DNA of 64,000 bases from Patescibacteria group bacterium. GTDB lineage: Bacteria > Patescibacteriota > Doudnabacteria > UBA920. The DNA lies in NCBI GenBank assembly GCA_013387205.1, contig WARV01000008.1, forward strand, positions 64,136 to 128,135, in the 5' to 3' direction. Below, piece by piece: positions 6,608 to 53,263 of the stretch; the stretch's first letter is position 1, and the number at the start of each line of letters is the position of its first letter. The notes under the pieces were generated by a model that worked only from the letters and a program-made list of their open reading frames with translations, searched no databases and was not told the origin of the DNA. The translations under genes were made by a program, and so were the position numbers.

Positions 6608-9166
6608 ATGAAAATGAAGAAGAAAAACCACGTCAAATTACCAATTCATGTCAGACCAGAACGGTATGAGATAATGCTCAAGCCGGATTTGGAGAATTTT
6701 TTGTTTGAAGGAGAAGAAACGATCTTTTTAACATTGGATAAATCAGTAAATGAAATTACTCTCCACTCCAAAGAATTGGAAATAGAATCGGCAGTATTTA
6801 GAGTTAAGAGTAAAGGGATAAGAGTTAAGAATATCAAATACGACGAAAAGGCGGAGACGATTATTTTTTCTTTTGCAGATAAACTGCCCAAAGGGGCAGG
6901 GGAATTGAAATTAAAATTCAAAGGCATTTTAAATGACAAAATGCGCGGATTTTACCGGAGCAAATACCACCATAAAGGCAAGGAAAGACACATGGCTACT
7001 ACGCAGTTTGAAGCGACTGATGCCAGGCGCGCCTTTCCTTGTTTTGACGAACCAGCGCAAAAAGCGATTTTCGACGTAACTTTAATGATTCCAAGCTTCA
7101 CAACCGCAATATCCAACACGATTGAAACTGAAGTCGTAGAACATACCAATGGGCTAAAGTCGGTTAAGTTCGCTTCGACCCCGAAAATGTCAACTTACCT
7201 TTTGGCCTTCATTGTCGGGGAATTCGAATGGATAGAAAGCAAAACCAAAGACGGGGTTGTGGTCAGGGTTTTTACAACACCGGGGAAAAAGCATCAGGCG
7301 AAATTCGCGCTTGGATGCGCGGTAAAATCACTGGAGTTTTACAATAATTATTTTGGCATTCCGTATCCGTTGCCGGTAATGGATTTAATTGCTATCCCGG
7401 ATTTTGAATCCGCGGCAATGGAAAACTGGGGAGCTGTTACTTACCGCGAATCCGCCCTGCTTGTTGATGAAGAACGTTCTTCAACCGCTAATAAAGAATG
7501 GGTGGCGATTGTCGTAGCTCATGAGCTGGCTCACCAGTGGTTCGGTAATTTAGTGACAATGGATTGGTGGACAGATTTGTGGCTGAACGAAGGCTTTGCG
7601 TCATACATGGAATATCTGGCAGTTGACCATATGTTTCCGAAATGGAACATGTGGACGCAGTATGTCGGCGGAAGATTCGCCAGGGCCTTGGATTTGGATT
7701 CGTTGGAACACACGCATCCAATTGAAATTGAGGTGCATCATCCGGACGAAATTGGAGAAATTTTTGATGAAGTCAGCTATGCCAAAGGCTCGGCCGTCAT
7801 CCGCATGCTGGCAGAATATTTAGGCGCGGAAACTTTCCGGAGAGGACTGGGTCATTACCTGAAAAAACACCAGTTCGGCAATGCAATAACATCTGATTTA
7901 TGGAAATCTTTTGAAGAAGTTTCCGGCAAGCCAGTAGGAAAAATAATGCAAAATTGGACGAGCAGGGCCGGTTATCCTTTGGTTAGCGTAGCTGACGGAG
8001 GAAAAATTTTGAACTTGAGCCAAAAAAGATTTTACAGCAGCCCGCTTTCGCTAAAAACTTCCAAAGACAATACTGTGTGGCAAATTCCTGTCAGCCTTTC
8101 ATCAGATAAAGACATGAATCAGGATAAAATAATTTTGGCATCAAAATCGCAGGCGATTAAATTGCCGGAAAATTTGAAATGGATAAAATTTAATGCCGGA
8201 CAAACCGGATTTTTCAGGACAAAATATCCTGAAAACCTGCTTGAAGGATTGTCGCAGCCAATAAAGGCAAAAAAACTTCCTGCTGCTGACCGATTGGGAA
8301 TTTTAAGCGATGCTTTTGCGTTAGTCGAAGCCGGGCAAATGCCGACTGTCGCGCTTTTGGAACTTTTAAAAAGTTATGAAGATGAAAATGATTATACGGT
8401 ATGGACAGAAATTATTTCTTGTCTAAGGACGCTGGACTCTTTGCTGTTTGAGACGGATGCCAGGAAGAAATTCAATGAATTCAGCCGCAAGATGCTTAAA
8501 AAAATAGCCGAACGCGTGGGGTGGGTTGCTAAAAAGCACGAAGACCATACGACTACGTTATTGCGCAGCCTGGTCTTGGTCAATTTAGGACACTTTGGCG
8601 ACAAGGATATAAAAACCAAATCTCTTAAAATGTTTTGGGGCAAAAAAAACATACCTGCGGATTTGCGCGGAATCGTCTATAGGATGGTGGCGGAAAACGG
8701 TTCCAATAAAGAATTTTTAGAGATGAAAAAAAGGTACGAGGCCGAACCTATGCATGAAGAGCAGGACAGGCTAGGCAGGAACATGGCATTTTTTGCTGAT
8801 GAAAAAATCCTGGCTAAGGTCTTTGATTTCGCCATGTCCGGCAAAGTCAGGATCCAGGATACGCCGTTTATAATAGGTTCGGGATTCTTTAATCCTGCCG
8901 GCAGGAACGCTGTGCTATCTTACGTTAAAAAGAATTGGAAAAATCTTGCTGATAAATTCGGCAGCGGCCACTTAATAGTAAGGTTTATCCACCCGATGGA
9001 TAGTTTTGTTTCAAAAGAGAAAGCGGATGAAATTGAACAATTCTTTAAAAAGTACCCGACTCCTTCGGCTAACAGGACCATAAAGCAGGTTTTGGAAAAA
9101 ATTATTTCCAACGACGCCTGGCTTAAGAGAGATTTAGATAGTATTAATGAATGGTTAAAAAAATAA
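6608..9166 (+). CDS. pepN: Aminopeptidase N (M1 family zinc metallopeptidase)
   Basis: GAMEN motif, then HELAHQWFGN ... 18 residues ... E (HEXXH-E); 852 aa. Confidence 0.85.
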   Translation: MKMKKKNHVKLPIHVRPERYEIMLKPDLENFLFEGEETIFLTLDKSVNEITLHSKELEIESAVFRVKSKGIRVKNIKYDEKAETIIFSFADKLPKGAGELKLKFKGILNDKMRGFYRSKYHHKGKERHMATTQFEATDARRAFPCFDEPAQKAIFDVTLMIPSFTTAISNTIETEVVEHTNGLKSVKFASTPKMSTYLLAFIVGEFEWIESKTKDGVVVRVFTTPGKKHQAKFALGCAVKSLEFYNNYFGIPYPLPVMDLIAIPDFESAAMENWGAVTYRESALLVDEERSSTANKEWVAIVVAHELAHQWFGNLVTMDWWTDLWLNEGFASYMEYLAVDHMFPKWNMWTQYVGGRFARALDLDSLEHTHPIEIEVHHPDEIGEIFDEVSYAKGSAVIRMLAEYLGAETFRRGLGHYLKKHQFGNAITSDLWKSFEEVSGKPVGKIMQNWTSRAGYPLVSVADGGKILNLSQKRFYSSPLSLKTSKDNTVWQIPVSLSSDKDMNQDKIILASKSQAIKLPENLKWIKFNAGQTGFFRTKYPENLLEGLSQPIKAKKLPAADRLGILSDAFALVEAGQMPTVALLELLKSYEDENDYTVWTEIISCLRTLDSLLFETDARKKFNEFSRKMLKKIAERVGWVAKKHEDHTTTLLRSLVLVNLGHFGDKDIKTKSLKMFWGKKNIPADLRGIVYRMVAENGSNKEFLEMKKRYEAEPMHEEQDRLGRNMAFFADEKILAKVFDFAMSGKVRIQDTPFIIGSGFFNPAGRNAVLSYVKKNWKNLADKFGSGHLIVRFIHPMDSFVSKEKADEIEQFFKKYPTPSANRTIKQVLEKIISNDAWLKRDLDSINEWLKK

Positions 9167-9288
9167 CTAATCATATAACCAATCTACAAATCCATACTAA
9201 TAATAACTAATGACAACTAATACTACCTTAGTACGCATTAGTTGTCATTGGTAATATTCGTTACATTAGTTGATTGGTTAATCAATGA

Positions 9289-10290
9289 ATGAACACAAAG
9301 AAATTTAAAAACAACAAGCAAGACATGATTAAAGCGGCAAAAATAATTAAAGCCGGAGGGCTTGTTGCGTTCCCAACGGAAACGGTTTACGGGCTCGGTG
9401 CCAATGCCTTGGATAAAAAAGCGGTCGCTAAGATTTTTAAGGCGAAAAGGCGCCCAAAATGGGACCCGATTATTTCCCATGTGGATTCGCTTGAAATGAT
9501 AGAATCTTTGGTCGGGAATCTTCCTGAGGATTTTTGGATTGTTTATACAAATTTCATGCCGGGACCGATAACCGTTTTGCTCGAAAAATCCAAAATTGTA
9601 CCCGATATTTTGACAGCCGGGAGTGAAAAAGTCTCTATTAGGATGCCAAGCGATAAAATTGCCAGGCGGCTTATTAAATTAAGTGGCGTGCCGATTGCCG
9701 CACCTAGCGCAAACTTATTTGGCAAAACCAGTCCGACAGACGCTAAGCACGTATTGTCAGATTTATCAGGAAAAATTGATGCGATAATCGATGGCGGACA
9801 AACAAAAGTCGGCGTGGAATCGACCGTATTGGATTTAACTGGCAAGGTGCCTGTAATTTTAAGGCCGGGAGGCATTACGAAAGAAGAATTGGAAAAAGTT
9901 TTGGGTAAAGTAAAGATTGCCAGCAAATCGATCGTGAAACCCAAAACCAACATGGCTTCGCCGGGTATGCATTTTAGGCATTATGCTCCAAAAGCGAAAT
10001 TGATTTTAACCAAAGGTGACCCCGAAAGCCTTAAAAGGGAAATTTCACTTTATCAAAAACAAGGAAAGCGGGTAGGGGTCATGCTGCCTAAAAACTGGAA
10101 AATTAAAACAGGTGCTGCCGCAAACTATAATTGGGGAAATTGGGATAATTTAAGACAATTGGCGCAAAATGTTTATAGAGGCTTAAGGTTTCTTGATGAC
10201 CAGGGCGTAGATATTATCATTTGCCCAAAACCAGAAGCTGAAAGTTTGGGCTTTGCGATAAACGACAGGCTTGAAAGGGCTTCCAAGTGA
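9289..10290 (+). CDS. tsaC: L-threonylcarbamoyladenylate synthase (Sua5/TsaC; the YrdC domain plus a Sua5 C-domain)
   Basis: GGLVAFPTETVYGLGANA. At 333 aa it is the long Sua5 type. The start could alternatively be the internal Met at about 9325. Confidence 0.8.
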   Translation: MNTKKFKNNKQDMIKAAKIIKAGGLVAFPTETVYGLGANALDKKAVAKIFKAKRRPKWDPIISHVDSLEMIESLVGNLPEDFWIVYTNFMPGPITVLLEKSKIVPDILTAGSEKVSIRMPSDKIARRLIKLSGVPIAAPSANLFGKTSPTDAKHVLSDLSGKIDAIIDGGQTKVGVESTVLDLTGKVPVILRPGGITKEELEKVLGKVKIASKSIVKPKTNMASPGMHFRHYAPKAKLILTKGDPESLKREISLYQKQGKRVGVMLPKNWKIKTGAAANYNWGNWDNLRQLAQNVYRGLRFLDDQGVDIIICPKPEAESLGFAINDRLERASK

Positions 10291-45167: not shown

Positions 45168-45917
45168 ATGATTATGATCACCAAACACAACATCAATTTA
45201 GAAAAAAACCCGCTAACCAATTTTGGTATGCGGGTTTTGAATATGCTTGTGGAAAACTCTAACCAAACTTATATTGCCGGAGGGACTGTTCGCGATATTT
45301 TATTAAAACGCAAACTGCGTGATTTTGACATTGCAACAGACCTGCAACCGGAAACAGTATGGAATCTGCTAGAACAAAACTTTTCTGCCAAGCGATACAG
45401 GTCAGAAAAACATTTGCATTTTGGCGTATCAAAAATCCAATTAAAAAATTCCGCTGAAATCGATATTACAACCTTCAGAAAAGAGGTTTACAAAGAGCAA
45501 ATGTATCCGAAAGTTGTTTTTGTTGAAAGTGCCAAGCAGGATAGCAAAAGACGCGACTTTACCATAAATTCCTTATATTTAAGCAATAATTTAACAGATA
45601 TATTAGATTTCCACAAAGGCGTTGCTGATTTAAAAAACAAAGTAATCAGATTTATCGGCAACCCGAAAAAAAGAATCAGGGAAGATCCTTTGCGCATCAT
45701 CCGCGCTTTGAGATTAGCTCTAATTTTGGATTTCAAGCTGGAAAAAAATACTGCCAAAGCTATTCAAAAGCATTTTGATGAAATTAAAAATATTACTTCA
45801 TCAAAAACTTTTTCTGAAATTAATAAATTGAAAAATATCAAAAAGAAAAATTTTCTAAAACATCTCATAACTGACAGAAAATCTCTTGACAATTATTTGG
45901 AAAAGTTTTACTATTAA
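45168..45917 (+). CDS. tRNA nucleotidyltransferase / poly(A) polymerase family head-domain protein (short, 249 aa)
   Basis: IAGGTVRDILL ... DFDIAT (Pol-beta-like nucleotidyltransferase motif G[SG]x9-13Dh[DE]h) and RDFTINSL. Confidence 0.6.
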   Translation: MIMITKHNINLEKNPLTNFGMRVLNMLVENSNQTYIAGGTVRDILLKRKLRDFDIATDLQPETVWNLLEQNFSAKRYRSEKHLHFGVSKIQLKNSAEIDITTFRKEVYKEQMYPKVVFVESAKQDSKRRDFTINSLYLSNNLTDILDFHKGVADLKNKVIRFIGNPKKRIREDPLRIIRALRLALILDFKLEKNTAKAIQKHFDEIKNITSSKTFSEINKLKNIKKKNFLKHLITDRKSLDNYLEKFYY

Positions 45918-46115
45918 AATAGAAACAACGGAGAATAAAACTGAAACAGATATTTAAAATCAGAAATTCAAAATAAATTTTGTGACGCGGATTCGAAATT
46001 AATTCGGTTGCGGAAAAAAATTTTTTCACTACTCAGCCGCTTTAAGCGGATAAAACAGAGTAGAAAATTAAGAAGCTCTGCCAAAATTAGTAGAGCTTTA
46101 AGGGAGACTAGTACA

Positions 46116-46190
46116 ATGGCTACTAAGAAGAAAGCTGCAAAGAAGCCAGCAAAGAAGAAAAAAGTCGCTGCGAAAAAGAAGCGCGCCTAG
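46116..46190 (+). CDS. Tiny lysine-rich basic peptide (MATKKKAAKKPAKKKKVAAKKKRA)
   Basis: AAGGGAGA ribosome-binding site 8 nt upstream; followed by a strong terminator. Histone-H1-like composition. Confidence 0.3.
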   Translation: MATKKKAAKKPAKKKKVAAKKKRA

Positions 46191-46221
46191 TTCTTCTCCA
46201 CTCCGACTTGTCGGAGTAGCA

Positions 46222-46262
46222 AAACCGTCCTCAAAACATTAGGACGGTTTTGTTTTTGGTTT
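46222..46262 (+). terminator. Rho-independent terminator
   Basis: ccgtcctcaaaacattaggacgg-ttttgttttt. Confidence 0.6.
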
Positions 46263-46345
46263 TTGATGGCGGGACATAAACTATTATTTACAAAAAAGCG
46301 CCATTACCCGTATAACTTTTACGGATTGGCGCTTTTGAGCTGTAG

Positions 46346-47209
46346 TTAGTGTGTTATTGGCACATCTTTATACAAAGGAGGCAATAGTGAAAAGATCAGC
46401 TTAACCATTTTAATCTCATTGTCTTTTCCCCGCCACTCCTTAAGTGCGCAGGTCGAAGGAAACTCAATCTTTGGATTGCAAGACCTGGTGATTACGTGGA
46501 TGTAAGTGAGGGAAAAGGGTACCCCACCCACCAATATCCTATCACGCTCACCAACTGTTTCTTTCTGCGCAGGCTTAACAACCAACTTAGTTAAGTACTC
46601 CTTGTCGGTAAGCTTGACCAACGCGTCTTTGAGAGCAGGACCTGTTTCTACGCTCGGGTAGTCAGCCTTACTAGTGTCGATGCTGGTAGGATAGGTCATG
46701 GCCGTAAGAAATCCAGTATCTTTATTGCATACTTCCAGCTGGCTAACTTGCCAGTCACCGGAAAGAATTTGCGGAGACTGCTGCTCAGCGCACTCTGCCA
46801 GAAGAGGATTCTTTTTGCCTCTCTTGAAAACTTCACGGAACTGCCGGCAAACATCGTTTATAACACCCCATTTGGACCAAGGTAACGGTTCAAACAGGTC
46901 AATCCGCGCAACATTGTTTTCAATGGAAAAAATTAGGTATATTGCGCTACAGATATTTAAGTCTCCGCTAACTTGTGCGTTGTCGAGCTGGCAGCTGCGA
47001 AACGGCGCGTCCACAACGTTACCCCAAACGCTGAACCAAAGTTTATACAGGTAATTCGGCACCAGCACCTCCACGGTTCCGTGCGTTTTTGGCAAGAAAT
47101 TATCAGCATTTGATGATTCTGTGGGTAAAAAGAACCTGGCTAACAGGTTACTGAATCTTCTGGGACCGACTGGATACTTAAGTAGTAGTCTGCGAATTAC
47201 AGCTTCCAT
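46346..47209 (-). CDS. Hypothetical protein (island cargo)
   Basis: 287-aa ORF, about 48% GC; no family recognised. Confidence 0.45.
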   Translation of the reverse strand: MEAVIRRLLLKYPVGPRRFSNLLARFFLPTESSNADNFLPKTHGTVEVLVPNYLYKLWFSVWGNVVDAPFRSCQLDNAQVSGDLNICSAIYLIFSIENNVARIDLFEPLPWSKWGVINDVCRQFREVFKRGKKNPLLAECAEQQSPQILSGDWQVSQLEVCNKDTGFLTAMTYPTSIDTSKADYPSVETGPALKDALVKLTDKEYLTKLVVKPAQKETVGERDRILVGGVPFSLTYIHVITRSCNPKIEFPSTCALKEWRGKDNEIKMVKLIFSLLPPLYKDVPITH

Positions 47210-48077
47210 ATATTTTCCTCCTAAAACTTTTCCTAAATTAATGACGGATTTGTAAAGAAAAATAAATAACTAGCCATTCAGATATTTTTGTAATCTTTAA
47301 AAACTTTAGAGTATGGCTTAACGACAAGGAAAAATAACGGCTTGGATATTATCTATCTCTTTTGATTAAATGTAGCGGACACTGTTCGAATCTAAAAAAT
47401 CGATAAAAAACATTTACGATTATAAATTTATAACTGTAGTTCTCCTAAGAGGTTTTGTGGTTTTTTTAGTCCTAACTTGCTTAGGGATATATCAAAAACC
47501 ACCAATATTTATTGGTGGTTTTTGATGGCGGCGAGCCAAAAACCACGCTCGAACTTTGGAGTTGGTCTGTCAGCATCTTGCCGCGCTTACCGAATGAAAC
47601 ACCCAAATTAAACAGCTATTTGAGCAAGGAATACGCGAGCCAACGCTGGCGGTAATTCTCTAAAAAAGTTATAATATAGCCATAAACCATTAACAAAACT
47701 CTTATGGACACGAAACAAAAAGATAACTTTACGGACGTATTAGACCATTTATCCAGCAACGATTCATCAGCGAATAGCGATAGCAGCGCTGGGTCAGGCC
47801 AAGTTGTTGGCGCGGACGGCCAAGTTGTAACTTTAGGTAATAAAGACGGACAAAATACCTCTATGGATAATTAAGCTGAATCTACTTGAACTTACAGTTA
47901 CTACCAAGAGTCTAAACACTTAAATATAATCGGCGAAAAATCAAAATTAGGAGCGCGGCAGTAGGCAACAAATACGCTGTAGGAAATAAAGGCGGCGGTA
48001 GAAAGTCAGCTTTTCAAGAGCAGGCTGACGCTGCCTTTTTTGCTGACCTCTGGAACGGCCGGTTAAAGAAGGAACGT

Positions 48078-48428
48078 ATGCAACGCAAAATCCAAAAAGG
48101 CAGATACGGCGCTAAGCATATTCTCGCTGTTAAAATCCTTGAGGGAAACGATAAGTTGCTTGCTAAACTTTTAGATAAATTCTTCCCTGACCAAATTAGC
48201 CACACTGACCCTGTTGCGGGATATTTCGTGAGTAGAGATGAATTAGAGCGCCAAAGACTGCAACTAAAGCAGTTAATTGAAGATACTAAAGCTCAAGCTG
48301 GCGGGCTTTTTGAGTCTGAACCTGAACCGATAAGCAAAGCCGAAGAGGAGCAAATAATAAAGGCCTTTCGTAATTTCGGAATGATTAAGGAAGATGATAA
48401 AGCAACGGAGTCAGAAACCGTGAGTTAG
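48078..48428 (+). CDS. Hypothetical protein (island cargo). The frame is open upstream without an ATG, so it may use a non-ATG start
   Basis: The upstream in-frame stretch encodes ... YAVGNKGGGRKSAFQEQADAAFFADLWNGRL ..., reminiscent of the N-termini of phage small terminases (weak). Confidence 0.35.
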   Translation: MQRKIQKGRYGAKHILAVKILEGNDKLLAKLLDKFFPDQISHTDPVAGYFVSRDELERQRLQLKQLIEDTKAQAGGLFESEPEPISKAEEEQIIKAFRNFGMIKEDDKATESETVS

Positions 48429-48489
48429 GTGGTAGGGTAAAAAGGTGTTATAATATAAGCGAAATAACACAACTTTAAGAAACAAAAAT

Positions 48490-49362
48490 ATGGAAAACAA
48501 TATAGGCAATAATATGCCACCAAGACCTGAACCAAGTCATGCTAATTCTGCTATGCCGACAGTTAACAGAAAATGGTATAAGCATAAAGGGATAATTGCA
48601 ATCATAATTTTAACCGTGATTGCGGGTGTTGTTGTTTGGGGTTACACATTGAATCAACCGCAAAATTTAGGTGCCATAACCAATGTTATAAACAGAAAAA
48701 AGTTAGCAGCTTCCAATTCGTTAATTTACCCAGGAGCCAAATTAACCGCTGTCAAAAAAAACAATGACGGAACTTCTTCTGTTGGATACGAAACATATGG
48801 AGATAACGTTCAATCATTTTATGCAGAACAACTTAAACAATTAGGATGGAATAAAGTAGCCGAATTGGGAGCCGCAGATATGACTTTATGCGGAGGCGAT
48901 TGGGGCGGCACATACGAAAAAGACGGCCAAAAATTTAAGTTGCATATATGTGGGCCTGATTCAGGAGATTTCCAGAAAGATATCAGTTTTTACTTTTACA
49001 ATGTCGAGCCAGAAAAAGTTTTAGGTGATAATTTATCAGGCGGGACTTTAAGCTGCGTTACTGATGCAAAAATTAATCTAACGAGTGCCTGCGCCACCCA
49101 AGACACTATAAAAATCACTTTGAATACACAGCGTCCAGAGTTGAATAAATTTCAGGTTTATATAACGGGTGAAAAATATACGAGCTTCCCTGACGTAAAT
49201 GCTATTGCTAGCAATTCCACTGTAAAAGAAGTTGATATCCCATACGACATTACAAAATGGGGTAATATCCAAAAAGTGCAGGTTACCCCCGTTATCACAA
49301 GCGATGGGACATTTTATTGCAGCGAACAAGCGGTTGAATCAGCTGTAAAAACTTGTAATTAA
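48490..49362 (+). CDS. Membrane-anchored hypothetical protein (island cargo)
   Basis: TM helix at residues about 33-55; Cys-containing extracytoplasmic domain. Confidence 0.45.
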   Translation: MENNIGNNMPPRPEPSHANSAMPTVNRKWYKHKGIIAIIILTVIAGVVVWGYTLNQPQNLGAITNVINRKKLAASNSLIYPGAKLTAVKKNNDGTSSVGYETYGDNVQSFYAEQLKQLGWNKVAELGAADMTLCGGDWGGTYEKDGQKFKLHICGPDSGDFQKDISFYFYNVEPEKVLGDNLSGGTLSCVTDAKINLTSACATQDTIKITLNTQRPELNKFQVYITGEKYTSFPDVNAIASNSTVKEVDIPYDITKWGNIQKVQVTPVITSDGTFYCSEQAVESAVKTCN

Positions 49363-49391
49363 ACTTTGGCAAAAAGTAATTTAATAGGAAA

Positions 49392-49416
49392 GTCCGACGA
49401 TTTGTCGGGCTTTTCT
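49392..49416 (+). terminator. Weak terminator hairpin
   Basis: ccgacgatttgtcgg-gcttttct. Confidence 0.35.
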
Positions 49417-49468
49417 ATTTGGTTTATTCTTTCTGGATAAATTAAAGCAATCCGAGTAAAATTAACTT

Positions 49469-51145
49469 ATGGACAACGCTGAAAACCCGAACTCAAATAA
49501 CAGCAATCCCCTTTTGACCACTAAAGATTTAGTCAGCCTTTTGTCATCTAAGTTCCAAAGAAATGAGCAAGTAAGGGATACTAGCAATTACAGGTATGTC
49601 ATATACGCTAGAAAATCGACGGAGAACGCCGAAAAACAGGTCAGGTCGCTATCTGACCAAGTTATTGAATGTAAGCAATTAGCCGAAAAGGAAAACTTAA
49701 AAATTATATCGGTTATCACCGAATCGGAATCGGCCAAAGAGCCGGACATTCGGCCAAAGTTTCGGCAGATGTTGGAAGATATGAAAAGCGGAAAATTTGA
49801 GGGGGTAATTGCGTGGCATCCTGACCGGCTGGCGCGTAATATGAAAGACGCCGGTGAGATTATAGATTTGCTGGACAAGGAACTTATTAAAGATTTAAGG
49901 TTTGTCAGTTACGTTTTTGTAAACGATACGGCCGGCAAAATGATGTTGGGTATTTCTTTTGTCCTGTCTAAACAGTATTCGGACAAGTTGAGCGACGATG
50001 TTTTGCGAGGCAATAAACGGAGCATTGAAGAGGGTAAATATCTTGGCCGCGTTAAACACGGCTATTACAAGGACGCAAATCAATTACTGCGGCCGGACGG
50101 CGATAATTTCCTTCTTATAAAGCAAGCCTTTCAATTACGGCTACAAGGTAAAACGATTGACGAGATTAAGGACTTTTTACACGCGCATAATTATTCGCTG
50201 CGGCAGCCCAACGGCCAGCATAAACTTTACAGGATAGATAAAAAGCGTGTTTCGGACTTTCTTAAAGACCCAGCCTATACTGGCGTGCTTATACGTGGCG
50301 ATAACATTGTGGATTTAACCGAAAAATACCAATTCGTTCCTGTTATTTCGGTAGATGACTTTTTAAAAATTAACAAACTCACTCTGTCCAAAGCGTTTCG
50401 CTTGGTCAAGAAATTCTATCCGCCTAATAAGATTAAAGCCGACCTGTTTCGGGGTTTGGTAACTTGCGGTGAATGTAACGAAATTATGTCATCGGGAATT
50501 ACAACCAAGCCCAAAGTCGGCAAGTCTTATTTTTACTTTCGTTGCGAAACTGACCGCTGTCCGGTAAAAGACAAATCCGTTAGGGCTAAAGTTATTGTGG
50601 ACTCGGCTTGCGAGTATTTAGAGCAAAATCAATTTAGCAGCCCAAAAGCCTATGAGCATTATAAAAAGGAATCGGCCAAAGTTTTTACCGAGCGACTGGC
50701 TGATGTTAAAAAGCAGCACGATGTTTTAGTGGCTTCCAAGCGTGAGGGTGAAAAGCGGCTATCTAAAATTAAAGACTTCTTGCTAAAGGAAGATGACCAA
50801 GCGCTAAGGGAATCATTTAAGGCCGATTTAGCCACAAAAGAAAAAGAATTAACAGAACTGGCCGAGCAAATATCCAAACTCAAAGCAGCTTTGCACACTA
50901 AAAAGACGGCGATTTTAAATTATCCGCAGTTTCTCGAACTTTTAGTTAAACTGCCCGTGGTTATTAGACAAACTAAGAATATGCAGGACTTAGACTTCCT
51001 TATACGAAAAATCTTCTCGAACTTTATTATCAGCAAACAAAAAACGGCTCAAATAAAACTAAATGAACCGTTTAATGCCCTCCTTGGGGTGGCAAAAATG
51101 CCCGAAAGTATACAATGGCGGGGACGGCGGGGCTCGAACCCGTAA
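49469..51145 (+). CDS. Large serine recombinase (resolvase catalytic domain, recombinase domain and zinc ribbon)
   Basis: YVIYARKSTENAEKQVRSLSDQ (catalytic Ser); HPDRLARN; CGECN ... C ... C zinc ribbon; 558 aa. The last 10 codons are antisense to tRNA-Asp. Confidence 0.8.
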   Translation: MDNAENPNSNNSNPLLTTKDLVSLLSSKFQRNEQVRDTSNYRYVIYARKSTENAEKQVRSLSDQVIECKQLAEKENLKIISVITESESAKEPDIRPKFRQMLEDMKSGKFEGVIAWHPDRLARNMKDAGEIIDLLDKELIKDLRFVSYVFVNDTAGKMMLGISFVLSKQYSDKLSDDVLRGNKRSIEEGKYLGRVKHGYYKDANQLLRPDGDNFLLIKQAFQLRLQGKTIDEIKDFLHAHNYSLRQPNGQHKLYRIDKKRVSDFLKDPAYTGVLIRGDNIVDLTEKYQFVPVISVDDFLKINKLTLSKAFRLVKKFYPPNKIKADLFRGLVTCGECNEIMSSGITTKPKVGKSYFYFRCETDRCPVKDKSVRAKVIVDSACEYLEQNQFSSPKAYEHYKKESAKVFTERLADVKKQHDVLVASKREGEKRLSKIKDFLLKEDDQALRESFKADLATKEKELTELAEQISKLKAALHTKKTAILNYPQFLELLVKLPVVIRQTKNMQDLDFLIRKIFSNFIISKQKTAQIKLNEPFNALLGVAKMPESIQWRGRRGSNP

Positions 51146-51192
51146 CCTCTCGCGTGACAGGCGAGTGCTCTAACCAATTGAGCTACGCCCCC
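51116..51192 (-). tRNA. tRNA-Asp (anticodon GUC)
   Basis: Manual fold: GGGGGCG acceptor, D arm GCTC/GAGC, anticodon loop CTGTCAC, T loop TTCGAGC, CCA end. Confidence 0.8.
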
Positions 51193-51268
51193 AAATATTA
51201 AGTTCTAAATCCTAATTTCTAAACTCTAAATATTGCTAAAGGATATGGCCAAAGGCCAGACGAAGCTT

Positions 51269-51345
51269 TAGCGAAGTCTGGTGCCGGAGGGTGGAATTGC
51301 ACCGCCGACCTTGGGCTTATGAGTCCCACGCTCTAACTAACTGAG
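51269..51345 (-). tRNA. tRNA-Met or tRNA-Ile2 (anticodon CAU), with an atypical T arm
   Basis: Acceptor GCCGGAG/CTCCGGC, anticodon loop CTCATAA, CCA end. The T loop TGCAATT has one stem mismatch. Confidence 0.6.
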
Positions 51346-51465
51346 CTACTCCGGCTTATTGCTGTTTAAACTAAAACCCTCCGGACAGAGGGTAAAAATC
51401 TGTCACGATTTTCAGGTTTTTAACCTAGTCAGTTTTCCATATCCATAATTGATGAAAAACTAGCT

Positions 51466-51541
51466 TGGTTGCGGGACCCGGACTCGAACCGGGAACCTCA
51501 AGGTTATGAGCCTTGCGAGCTGCCAATTGCTCTATCCCGCG
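51466..51541 (-). tRNA. Initiator-like tRNA-fMet (anticodon CAU) with a C1:A72 mismatch
   Basis: CGCGGGA ... TCCCGCA-A-CCA, anticodon loop CTCATAA, T loop TTCGAGT. Confidence 0.7.
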
Positions 51542-51722
51542 ATAATAACTGATATATTATAATATACAATTAAAAATTAATCAAATCCACATTTCACAAT
51601 TCAAACAAAGCCGGGTCTTTACTGCCAAATATTTGTCAACAAATGCGTAAAATTGATATAATAATAACAACAATATACTAGACGGTTTTAACGTCTTATC
51701 TAATAGAAATAACAAATAAAAC

Positions 51723-52757
51723 ATGATAAATACAATACTTTATGTGGTATCAGCGGTGCTCTTTGCAGGTATGGCTGTTTTGGCATATCTTTTGATAGAC
51801 TTAAAAAAGCAAGCAGAGAAACCTCAAGATGATAACAGCCTAAAGGTAATGATGGAATGGATGAAAGAGATTAAAAGCGGCACGGACAAAACCCGCGATT
51901 CCATGCAGCAGAGCATTAACGAAACGAATAAAGCCATTAACGAAAGATTGGATAATGCGGCAAGAGTGATTGCGGGACTTCAGGGCAAACTAGGAGAAAT
52001 GACTCAAATTGGACCGGATATTCGCAGATTGTCGGAAGTCTTAGCCAGCCCAAAAGCCCGCGGTAATTTTGGAGAAGAAATGCTGGAAAGCTTGCTTGCG
52101 GAAACTTTGCCGAAATCAGTTTATGGCATACAGTATAAATTCAAAAATGGCGAGACCGTAGACGCTTACGTATCCATCGATAATAAAATTTTGCCCATCG
52201 ACAGCAAATTCAGCATGGAAAATTTCAGGATGTTTAAAGAAGCTAAAGACGACGATACTGCGGAGACTTTGAAAAAAGCGTTCCTTAAAGACGTAAAAAA
52301 GCGCATAGACGAAATTCATAAAAAATATATTTTGCCGCAAGAGAACACTTTTGACTTTGCCTTAATGTATGTGCCAAGCGAAGGAGTTTATAGCGAGATT
52401 GTGGAATCTTTGGAAACCATGGCATATTGCCGCAAACAAAACGTCATCCCGGTAAGTCCTAACACTTTATTTGCATACATGCGCATTGTTATTGTGTCTT
52501 TGCGCGGCCAGCAAATAAATGATGCAGCTCAAGAAATTATGAAGATGATTTCCGGTATAAAACAGGAAAGCGAAAAATTCGGGCGGAATTTGGAAATTTT
52601 AGGAAAACATATAGTAAACGCAGGCAGCGCTTACACAACTGTCGGCAACGATTTCGCCAAACTCAAAACCAGCATAACAAACGCTGCCACATTACAGCTC
52701 AAAGAAGCTCCAGAGGCCAAAGAAACGGTTATAGAAACACAAAAATTATTAGATTAA
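51723..52757 (+). CDS. rmuC: DNA recombination protein RmuC
   Basis: N-terminal TM helix, coiled coil, then a nuclease-like C-domain (DAYVSIDNKILPIDSKF ... FALMYVPSEGVY). Confidence 0.75.
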   Translation: MINTILYVVSAVLFAGMAVLAYLLIDLKKQAEKPQDDNSLKVMMEWMKEIKSGTDKTRDSMQQSINETNKAINERLDNAARVIAGLQGKLGEMTQIGPDIRRLSEVLASPKARGNFGEEMLESLLAETLPKSVYGIQYKFKNGETVDAYVSIDNKILPIDSKFSMENFRMFKEAKDDDTAETLKKAFLKDVKKRIDEIHKKYILPQENTFDFALMYVPSEGVYSEIVESLETMAYCRKQNVIPVSPNTLFAYMRIVIVSLRGQQINDAAQEIMKMISGIKQESEKFGRNLEILGKHIVNAGSAYTTVGNDFAKLKTSITNAATLQLKEAPEAKETVIETQKLLD

Positions 52758-52786: not shown

Positions 52787-53263
52787 ATGAAAAAAAACGA
52801 CAAAATTAGCATTACCGGATTTACATTAATTGAGTTGCTGGTAGTAATAGCTATTGTAGGCCTGCTTGCATCAGTGCTCCTTATGACCTTGAACAACGCA
52901 AGGATAAAAGCCAGAGACGTAAAAAGAAAGTCCGACGCTGCTCAGCTCGCAAAAGCACTGGCTTTATATTACGACAGTAACCAGTCAAAATACCCCTTAG
53001 GGCCCATATCTACCGTTAACGGCGATTGGCCGGCGGCTTTCAAGCAGCAGATGGAGCCATTCGTTTCGGCGTTGCCAAAAGATCCTCTTGCCAATAATTT
53101 AAACAGATTTTATGAAATACTGCTCTGGCCTTCGAGTATATGCAAAGACCATTATGTGATTCTTGTAGTACTGGAAGACGCGGCAAATATGAGCCCTTCT
53201 GACAATACATGCGATTATCCGACTAATTTTGGCTGGGTATTTCAGGACTTGGGCGCTCCTTAA
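52787..53263 (+). CDS. Prepilin-type N-terminal cleavage/methylation domain protein (type IV pilin / T2SS pseudopilin)
   Basis: GFTLIELLVVIAIVGLLA prepilin motif; DVKRKSDAAQLAKALALYYDSNQSKYP. Confidence 0.7.
   Translation: MKKNDKISITGFTLIELLVVIAIVGLLASVLLMTLNNARIKARDVKRKSDAAQLAKALALYYDSNQSKYPLGPISTVNGDWPAAFKQQMEPFVSALPKDPLANNLNRFYEILLWPSSICKDHYVILVVLEDAANMSPSDNTCDYPTNFGWVFQDLGAP

Follow-up and report, generated by a model that had tools for sequence, protein, structure and literature searches.

A probable integrative mini-element of a large serine recombinase at the 3' end of a tRNA-Asp gene in a Patescibacteria bacterium

The locus described here raises the question of why the gene of a large serine recombinase (LSR) should end inside a tRNA gene that is read from the opposite strand. 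The window, which is the whole 64-kb stretch of DNA analysed, comes from a Patescibacteria group bacterium (contig WARV01000008.1, positions 64,136 to 128,135), and all positions given below are those of the window unless a comparison locus is named. The LSR gene in its integrated form occupies 49469-51145 on the plus strand. With its TAA stop codon at 51143-51145 it runs in antisense for 30 nt into the 3' end of the tRNA-Asp(GUC) gene located at 51116-51192 on the minus strand, as an earlier note on this DNA had correctly read from the letters. The tRNA gene itself is intact (ARAGORN; Rfam, 65.2 bits). We consider it highly probable, at roughly 0.85, that the segment 47526-51121, the element under study, is an integrative mini-element of ~3.6 kb which was mobilised by the LSR and lies between the CCA end of tRNA-Asp(GUC) and the terminator of the tRNA operon. 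It would be a member of a clade in candidate-phyla-radiation (CPR) bacteria that targets the 3' ends of tRNA and tmRNA genes. That a serine recombinase had directed an integrative element to the tRNA 3' end was already proposed in the earlier note, and this proposal is now strongly supported by the overlap in the family, the circular forms, an empty site, the motif in the left attachment site and the contrast between the similarities of element and host genes.

It is important to establish first the nature of the protein. The LSR of 558 residues matches PF00239 (5.4e-23, residues 44-191), PF07508 and PF13408, the latter two above their curated cut-offs, and the PHROG integrase family phrog_95 at 1.8e-60. 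The catalytic residue S50, located in a YARKS motif, is invariant in 35 family members, and the zinc-ribbon residues C333, C336, C359 and C364 are invariant in the family alignment. All family-invariant residues, these five among them, are retained in the window protein, so that the intact serine motif and zinc ribbon noticed earlier are both present. In the AlphaFold2 (AF2) model the helices 392-440 and 444-477 form a coiled-coil insertion in the zinc-ribbon domain, and the best Foldseek matches to the model are full-length LSR-DNA complexes (E 2e-20). The sequence identity is 13-17% to the solved LSRs and about 24% to the best phage integrases. By domains and fold the window protein is a bona fide LSR, distant from those characterised. 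An exact look-up of its sequence returned no record, and a scan of a genome collection with this protein alone gave a single unrelated match of 23% identity.

The C-terminus of the protein has an unusual composition. Residues 1-551 are encoded by the element, while the last seven (GRRGSNP) come from the antisense strand of tRNA-Asp; the terminal ...WRGRRGSNP is what the CCA end, acceptor stem and T arm of the tRNA encode when read in antisense. In the AF2 model residues 541-558 are disordered, with pLDDT (predicted local distance difference test) values below 50.

The same feature was looked for in related loci. The comparison set consisted of 80 metagenomic loci and three loci from a viral contig collection, together with an alignment of the family, and the ends of the open reading frames (ORFs) and the tRNA genes were mapped in each. 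The set was not de-replicated and includes a few near-duplicates. ORF families were assigned with Pfam, PHROGs and PADLOC. Relatives of the LSR are very numerous in CPR/Patescibacteria metagenome bins; the best 120 are 45-100% identical to it, range in size from 539 to 614 residues, and carry source names such as Parcubacteria, Saccharimonadales, Daviesbacteria, Woesebacteria and others. The C-termini of many relatives read as antisense tRNA, for example ...GGDGGARTRNLSRDRRVL, which corresponds to the window tRNA-Asp in another frame. The census of ORF ends covers the 76 homologue ORFs whose end is on the contig (33-60% identity, CPR/Patescibacteria). Fifty-seven of these stop within a tRNA gene that is encoded on the opposite strand and whose 3' end faces the recombinase, and the targets of the 57 comprise 16 isoacceptors, Pro-UGG being the commonest. 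One further ORF (locus L059, 11619-12014) ends inside a tmRNA gene, which indicates that the clade targets ssrA too, and several of the remaining ORFs run into tRNA-like sequence at the contig end. Targeting of tRNA and tmRNA 3' ends by a serine recombinase is the rule in this large CPR clade. The view that a serine recombinase at a tRNA gene is uncommon holds for the literature but not here: in a published survey of integrative elements, t(m)RNA genes were the sites of serine integrases in 14 of 297 cases, which the survey described as previously unreported and in need of proof.

One locus of the set has a more complex arrangement. Locus L009 (5419-11668) contains two LSR copies between two inverted tRNA-Ala(UGC) genes, which may be the product of a tandem insertion or of a rearrangement mediated by the recombinase.

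A second line of evidence is provided by circular forms. The homologues P0044 and P0054 do not have a tRNA-like end; they continue with ...GG-x5-LEL(F/Y)... for about 44 residues, and their contigs are circular. Three independent circles were found, of 4.6 kb (L090/L091), 4.9 kb and 8.0 kb (L077). L090 and L091 are independent assemblies and represent circular permutations of one sequence of ~4.6 kb; L089 has an exact terminal overlap of 30 nt and L077 an overlap of 123 nt. Genes for replication or for virions were not recognised in any of the circles. In all of them the LSR ORF reads through the attachment site of the circular form, attP, so the circular form encodes a longer enzyme than the integrated form. 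The attachment site of L090, TGGCGGGGACGAAGGGACTCTGCTCGAACTTT, has 11 nt in common with the 3' end of tRNA-Asp.

The position of attP inside the recombinase gene explains the overlap of the LSR stop codon with the tRNA. For 22 loci attP was reconstructed by joining the left side of the right attachment site (attR) to the right side of the left one (attL). An in-frame tail of 43-50 residues was obtained in 21 of these 22 sites, while the other two frames mostly stop early, typically after 1-30 codons. The tails share the pattern G-(R/G)-x5-(L)-E-L-aromatic and a hydrophobic end and are otherwise weakly conserved; part of this conservation is due to the DNA motif GAA CTT, which itself encodes Glu-Leu. 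AF2 gives the tail of the circle-form protein as a long helix with a pLDDT of 35-56, which is not usable as evidence. The corresponding tail in the window is stranded at the far end of the element, at 47532-47663 on the plus strand (43 codons), and would be in frame with the LSR only in a circular form.

The two attachment sites of the window share the core ATGGCGG. In attR (51090-51145, plus strand) the 3' coding end of the LSR gene, which adjoins this site, forms the P arm; the core lies at 51115-51121, and the acceptor and T arm of the tRNA make up the B' half-site, with the T-loop GCTCGAACC at 51132-51140 and its GAAC at +21. In attL (47525-47560, plus strand) the core at 47525-47531 is followed by the P' half-site, in which a T-loop-like sequence, GCTCGAACT, is found at 47547-47555 and GAAC is at +26 from the T of TGG. 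The distance from attL to attR is 3590 bp. The corresponding distances in the other loci give element sizes of 2.9-7.5 kb, or up to 8.0 kb when the circles are included. The P' half-site is kept in L002, L004, L089 and L090, and TGGCGG-CGA...ACGCYCGAACTTTGG recurs at the far element end in the syntenic relative L002 (LSR 86% identical) and in L004 (59%, also at tRNA-Asp).

This difference in spacing was followed in the 44 loci where the tRNA starts with TGG on the plus strand. Upstream copies of the first 6 nt of the tRNA were located, and the offset of the next GAAC was recorded between 13 and 40. The offset +26 occurs in 25 cases and any other offset in 0-2, while the T-loop GAAC within the tRNAs themselves lies at +21. 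The T-loop-like motif is hence located exactly 5 bp further out in the half-site of the element than in that of the tRNA. Rutherford et al. (2013) placed the motif recognised by the LSR zinc ribbon at half-site positions 16-24 in attP and 11-19 in attB, and the right half-sites P' and B' described here obey this published 5-bp rule. From this geometry we infer that the central dinucleotide is at antisense positions 5-6, corresponding to tRNA nt 71-72; the identity blocks of 6-7 nt agree with a crossover at this point.

The possibility that the overlap and the short repeats are coincidental and that there is no element must be compared with these data. Taken singly, the tRNA-like 8-9-mers at 46267 and 47547 are at chance level when the tRNA is compared with the window by blastn-short, and the GC content is unremarkable. 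However, a coincidence would have to account for the overlaps in 57 of 76 ORFs, the position-specific peak of the motif, the circles and the empty site described below. It would also have to account for a 15-nt direct repeat, for which 0.01 copies are expected, and for two matches to TGGCGG-N19-GAAC in the 64-kb window against 0.04 expected. We regard this explanation as practically negligible, the census of ORF ends in the family having already refuted it. It is comparison with relatives that makes the attachment sites convincing. Thus, the copy TGGCGG...GCTCGAAC which the earlier note had pointed out is present at 47526-47554 and is recognised through the relatives as the true left attachment site, although by itself it consists of chance-level 8-9-mers. 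The second copy, TGGCGGGAC, is likewise present, at 46267-46275, but is by itself at chance level in blastn-short; L002, L093 and L096 have a tRNA-Asp allele whose first 9 nt are identical to it.

The second TGGCGG-N19-GAAC match of the window is at 48299-48327 inside ORF116, in an in-frame stretch of ~93 nt that is missing from the L002 orthologue. It could be a chance match or an internal scar resembling an att site.

The left border of the element also contains a structural marker. A perfect hairpin of 17 bp (100% complementary) with a T-run at 47491-47526 forms the B arm of attL and is homologous to a hairpin in L002. In many other loci a terminator hairpin adjoins the core in the same way, as the B arm. 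Locus L093 has the gene order ATP synthase, CCA enzyme, small basic ORF, tRNA-Met, tRNA-Met, tRNA-Asp, hairpin and RmuC, with no LSR, and its hairpin directly adjoins the CCA end of tRNA-Asp. This is an empty site of the kind that the earlier note had suggested seeking in related genomes, although the tRNA block is in the opposite orientation there. It follows that the window element sits between the tRNA and the tRNA's own terminator, and that the hairpin at 47491-47526 is the displaced intrinsic terminator of the tRNA operon.

Comparison of the window with L002 is informative with respect to mobility. The LSRs are 86% identical and the non-coding DNA of the left element end is 81% identical, while the host proteins AtpC and CCA enzyme show only 60% and 48% identity. 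An element so much more alike than the host genes around it argues for horizontal spread, as judged by sequence comparison. In L096 the intact tRNA is followed, at 9126-9340, by two partial and displaced copies of the 3' end of tRNA-Asp, one of them 20 nt long and with a hairpin before it, and beyond them lie 2.7 kb of variable genes (GT4, HSP20). These fragments look like scars of earlier integrations, and together with the variable genes they point to an integration hotspot.

The orientation of the locus requires comment. In comparison with L093, L096 and L004/L005, the cluster of tRNA-Met, tRNA-Met and tRNA-Asp together with the element (window 45168-52757) has the reverse orientation with respect to its CCA-enzyme and RmuC flanks, so that the window and L002 differ from those loci by an inversion too. 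An inversion of the tRNA block carried out by the LSR was considered and rejected, since no inverted att-like copy is found at the far breakpoint. One might nevertheless regard the LSR as a host-domesticated invertase acting on the tRNA cluster, with the overlap being a regulatory arrangement. This inversion, and the two LSR copies between inverted tRNA-Ala genes in L009, would be in line with such a role. The putative inversion end-points in the window, however, have no inverted att-like repeat; the same LSR clade is found on free circles with defence cargo and sits at 16 tRNA species; and the attL/attR architecture with the split tail is that of integration. An invertase therefore appears very improbable.

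The integration mechanism that we propose for the mini-element would be the following. In the circular form attP would lie inside the 3' end of the recombinase ORF, and its P' half-site would contain the motif YYCGAACTT, which resembles a T-loop and is 5 bp more distant from the core than the real T-loop is in B'. This spacing would let the zinc-ribbon domain of the LSR tell attP from attB. Strand exchange would take place within the shared TGGCGG, presumably at tRNA nt 71-72, and would leave the tRNA intact. The recombinase ORF would become fused to the antisense strand of the tRNA, creating the 30-nt overlap and the ...WRGRRGSNP end, and the last ~43 codons of the recombinase gene would be left at the opposite end of the element.

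Several observations weigh against this interpretation. A mirrored or shared motif was not seen in the left arms P and B of several loci inspected by eye. The circles are known for relatives and not for the window element. The tRNA block is inverted in L093 and L096, so the empty site does not amount to a simple precise deletion of the window locus. The GC content shows no sign of foreign origin: the block 46257-51192 has a GC fraction of 0.409 against 0.407 for the window, which is the 65th percentile of windows of the same size. The block had been described as a higher-GC island, and this description has to be abandoned; neither GC nor skew gives a foreign-origin signal. Finally, the copy in the window has two defects. 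Its stranded tail is broken by TGA at 47595-47597, where L002 has TGG, and the conserved frame of ORF116 lacks a start codon. As the 21 codons after the TGA are still conserved, the tail stop suggests a recent nonsense mutation or a sequencing error. With these two defects the window copy may no longer re-integrate efficiently, and it may be decaying although its recombinase is intact.

These defects also bear on whether the window copy is an immobilised, decaying relic that entered by the same mechanism and whose recombinase is kept for some other purpose or has merely not been lost so far, a question that concerns its current activity and not its origin. The broken tail (even with its downstream codons conserved), the lost start of ORF116, the occupation of the same site in L002 and the host-like composition would all fit a relic. 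On the other hand, the LSR is intact with all its invariant residues and is 86% identical to the L002 copy across far more divergent hosts, and the motifs of attL and attR are intact. Excision needs only these, and the tail would matter at most for the next integration. We therefore think of a relic as a real but rather unlikely possibility.

The genes carried by the mini-element are the following. Directly after the stranded tail lies a small acidic protein of 56 residues (47704-47874, plus strand) with the motif KDNFTDV...DGQVVTLG. A protein with the motif DN(F/L)TD...DGxx(V/I)TLG occupies this place in the circles as well as in the clades that target the tRNAs for Asp, Glu, Pro and Arg, which identifies it as a core gene of the element family; it is a candidate directionality factor or regulator. 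ORF116 follows at 47916-48428 on the plus strand. Its annotated ATG is at 48078, and its conserved frame reaches up to 47916; it is 65% identical to the L002 orthologue of 129 residues, which has an ATG and the N-terminus GNKYALGNKGGGRK. ORF290 (48490-49362, plus strand) has an N-terminal transmembrane segment followed by an extracytoplasmic part and represents a rare cargo family, with 34 distant representatives at E<=1e-3 among 1.84 billion. A strong terminator-like hairpin of 17 pairs at 49383-49419 (plus strand) separates the cargo from the recombinase gene. Neither ORF116 nor ORF290 has a match in Pfam, PHROGs or PADLOC. All the ORFs listed in the earlier note, at 46346-47209 on the minus strand and at 47704-47874, 48078-48428 and 48490-49362, are present, and their description as uncharacterised cargo stands.

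Relatives carry genes that are better recognised. Candidate anti-phage genes among their cargo are an AriA/OLD-like ATPase (8e-24), PDC-S42 (7e-93), an Ltp-like lipoprotein, DUF4238, a DUF6414/AAA pair, and a CBASS pair accompanied by a HEPN protein and a LexA-like repressor. The CBASS set (SMODS and Cap15, with a HEPN_LA2681 protein and a LexA-like S24 repressor) is found in L077 (1-8153), where the LSR is in its attP form, and the repressor hints at SOS-controlled mobility. No Pfam matches to relaxase, oriT or type IV secretion were found in the element ORFs examined.

Such small genes could also be the leftovers of a phage, and the locus the remnant of a prophage or phage satellite with a serine integrase. 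The LSR matches phrog_95, annotated as 'integrase', a 150-residue gene upstream in L089 matches small-terminase/helix-turn-helix PHROGs (phrog_2538 at 8.6e-8), and a viral contig collection contains three homologous loci. However, no capsid, portal, tail, large-terminase or lysis gene occurs in the window element, in the three circles or beside the LSR in the viral-collection contig L086. The whole elements measure only 2.9-8 kb, and the best phage integrases are about 24% identical to the LSR. The terminase-like helix-turn-helix protein is present only in some relatives. ORF116 of the window has no terminase match, and the small-terminase-like N-terminus once suspected in a window ORF finds no support from hidden Markov models. 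A phage origin of this kind is improbable, if somewhat less so than a domesticated invertase.

To the left of the mini-element lies a recombinase-less segment of about 1.26 kb (46273-47516), which contains ORF287 (46346-47209, minus strand) and is absent in L002. It is bracketed by a 15-nt direct repeat, GGTTTTTGATGGCGG, which is exact at 46258-46272 and at 47517-47531, the latter copy being the B arm and core of attL; 0.01 copies are expected from shuffles. The repeat had been noticed before, and it is confirmed as exact, although with coordinates that were off by 1-2 nt. The left copy belongs to a scar resembling a displaced tRNA-Asp 3' end at 46258-46275 (plus strand), which consists of a copy of the attB left arm and the core, GGTTTTTGA-TGGCGG-GAC, and lies directly downstream of the terminator of a small basic ORF. 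This left end has no GAAC at +26 and so resembles a displaced tRNA-Asp 3' end and not a P' arm. A search of 5.8 billion proteins returned no homologue of ORF287 other than ORF287 itself, and Pfam, PHROGs and PADLOC gave no match. The segment on the left and the LSR element on the right stand in tandem, contrary to the "two nested remnants" once envisaged here. Either the ORF287 segment was accreted as a cassette, or it is what an older insertion has left behind as a scar.

A different segment is found at the same site in L002 (5258-6060), where ~800 bp with an S51 peptidase gene lie between the LSR and tRNA-Asp. It starts with an arm of the P' type (GAAC at +26) and ends with a hairpin adjoining the tRNA, so that sites resembling attP and attB follow one another in direct order on this chromosome. 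In our view both segments are remnants or add-ons that lack a recombinase and occupy the same site. Among 22 loci the 14-15-nt repeat of the window type was found in the window only, and accretion is therefore not shown to be general. An integron-like cassette platform was rejected for the same reason and because the recombinase is a serine enzyme and not an IntI tyrosine integrase.

The remaining features of the locus concern the tRNA operon and its neighbours. ARAGORN and Rfam agree on the three-tRNA cluster described earlier: in addition to tRNA-Asp, two tRNA-Met genes of the same operon are located at 51279-51355 and 51466-51541 on the minus strand, and a promoter-like site of the operon is seen at 51584-51556 on the same strand. 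Since no strong terminator was found in the window between tRNA-Asp and the recombinase gene, transcription of the tRNA operon likely runs antisense into the LSR gene. In L004 (6112-6838) and L005 (7062-7785) the second tRNA-Met is split at the anticodon by an insert of ~640 bp, in which a PDDEXK_5 ORF and a group I intron (Rfam RF00028, 62.8 bits) are found; the presence of such introns in tRNA genes of Patescibacteria has already been published (PMC13011429). A lysine-rich ORF of 60 residues at 46008-46190 (C-terminal half ...MATKKKAAKKPAKKKKVAAKKKRA) with its own terminator is kept after the CCA-enzyme gene in L002 and L093. The ORF at 52787-53263 begins with MKKNDKISITGFTLIELLVVIAIVGLLASV, a typical type IV prepilin N-terminus judging from the translation only.

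The window element is an ordinary and possibly decaying member of its clade, and it is the clade and its mode of integration that are of interest. Directionality and expression may be governed jointly by the acidic protein, the swapping of the C-terminal tail and transcription antisense to the LSR gene. A broader and more tentative proposal, to which we give less than even odds, is that the clade is specialised in tRNA and tmRNA genes and uses the universal T-loop as the zinc-ribbon motif of attB, which would make retargeting easy, with attP placed in its own ORF. The C-terminal helix of ~44 residues, exchanged for tRNA-antisense residues, might then serve as a sensor of the integration state that sets the direction of recombination, possibly together with the acidic protein. 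Defence-carrying elements of 3-8 kb could in this way manage with hardly any accessory genes.

Serine integrases have been regarded as avoiding tRNA genes, and a whole clade that targets them as a rule bears on why tRNA genes attract integrases. The architecture of the att sites is a natural illustration, replicated many-fold, of the 5-bp rule for attP and attB, and for dozens of new integrases it supplies att sites that can be tested directly. Since all organisms have conserved tRNA acceptor and T-arm sequences, these sites are of practical interest. With its split tail the clade points to a new kind of link between the form of a recombinase and the integration state. In CPR bacteria, about whose mobile elements little is known, the mini-elements also appear to be a main vehicle of defence genes.

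In the literature available as full text, neither this CPR clade nor the T-loop motif was found described, nor was a serine recombinase gene with attP inside it; that coverage is incomplete and an earlier description is possible. The clade is apparently undescribed. The tycheposons of Prochlorococcus (Hackl et al., bioRxiv 10.1101/2020.12.28.424599) mostly have a tyrosine recombinase, with a large serine recombinase in 27 of 937, and many have replication genes. Like the elements of this clade they are small, bear cargo and occupy tRNA genes in streamlined genomes. They differ in that no replication genes are recognised in the CPR clade, and tycheposons have not been described as having a split-gene attP or the T-loop motif.

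Islands and prophages of tyrosine integrases in tRNA and tmRNA genes (P4-like; Islander/TIGER) also use the 3' part of the tRNA and leave it intact, have the integrase gene beside the att site, and form hotspots with scars. However, the enzyme family and the chemistry are different, and a long block replaces the 3' half of the tRNA, whereas identity in the present clade is limited to the extreme 3' end, where the CCA, the discriminator and the first acceptor bases make up 6-15 nt. The integrase gene of SSV1-type archaeal elements is split by integration, and mycobacteriophages have an integration-dependent immunity in which the repressor gene is affected; both use tyrosine recombinases. As in the present clade, integration alters the C-terminus or the integrity of a protein encoded by the element and so reports the integration state, but here it is a serine recombinase that loses a short tail. 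The streptococcal cis-mobilisable elements (CIMEs), formed by accretion in systems with tyrosine integrases, are recombinase-less segments bracketed by att-derived direct repeats and placed in tandem with an element. The ORF287 segment is similarly recombinase-less, repeat-bracketed and in tandem at the same site, although its left end is without an arm of the P' type.

The phage LSRs of Listeria A118/LI, phiC31, Bxb1, SPbeta and TP901-1 differ from the window clade in several respects. The clade targets tRNA and tmRNA 3' ends with the T-loop as the attB motif, its attP lies inside the recombinase ORF, from which integration removes a tail of ~44 residues, and its elements of 3-8 kb have no phage genes. 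Yet these phage enzymes include the best structural matches to the window protein, they share its domain order of catalytic domain, recombinase domain and zinc ribbon with a coiled-coil insertion, and the right half-sites of the clade's att sites follow the 5-bp rule published for LSRs.

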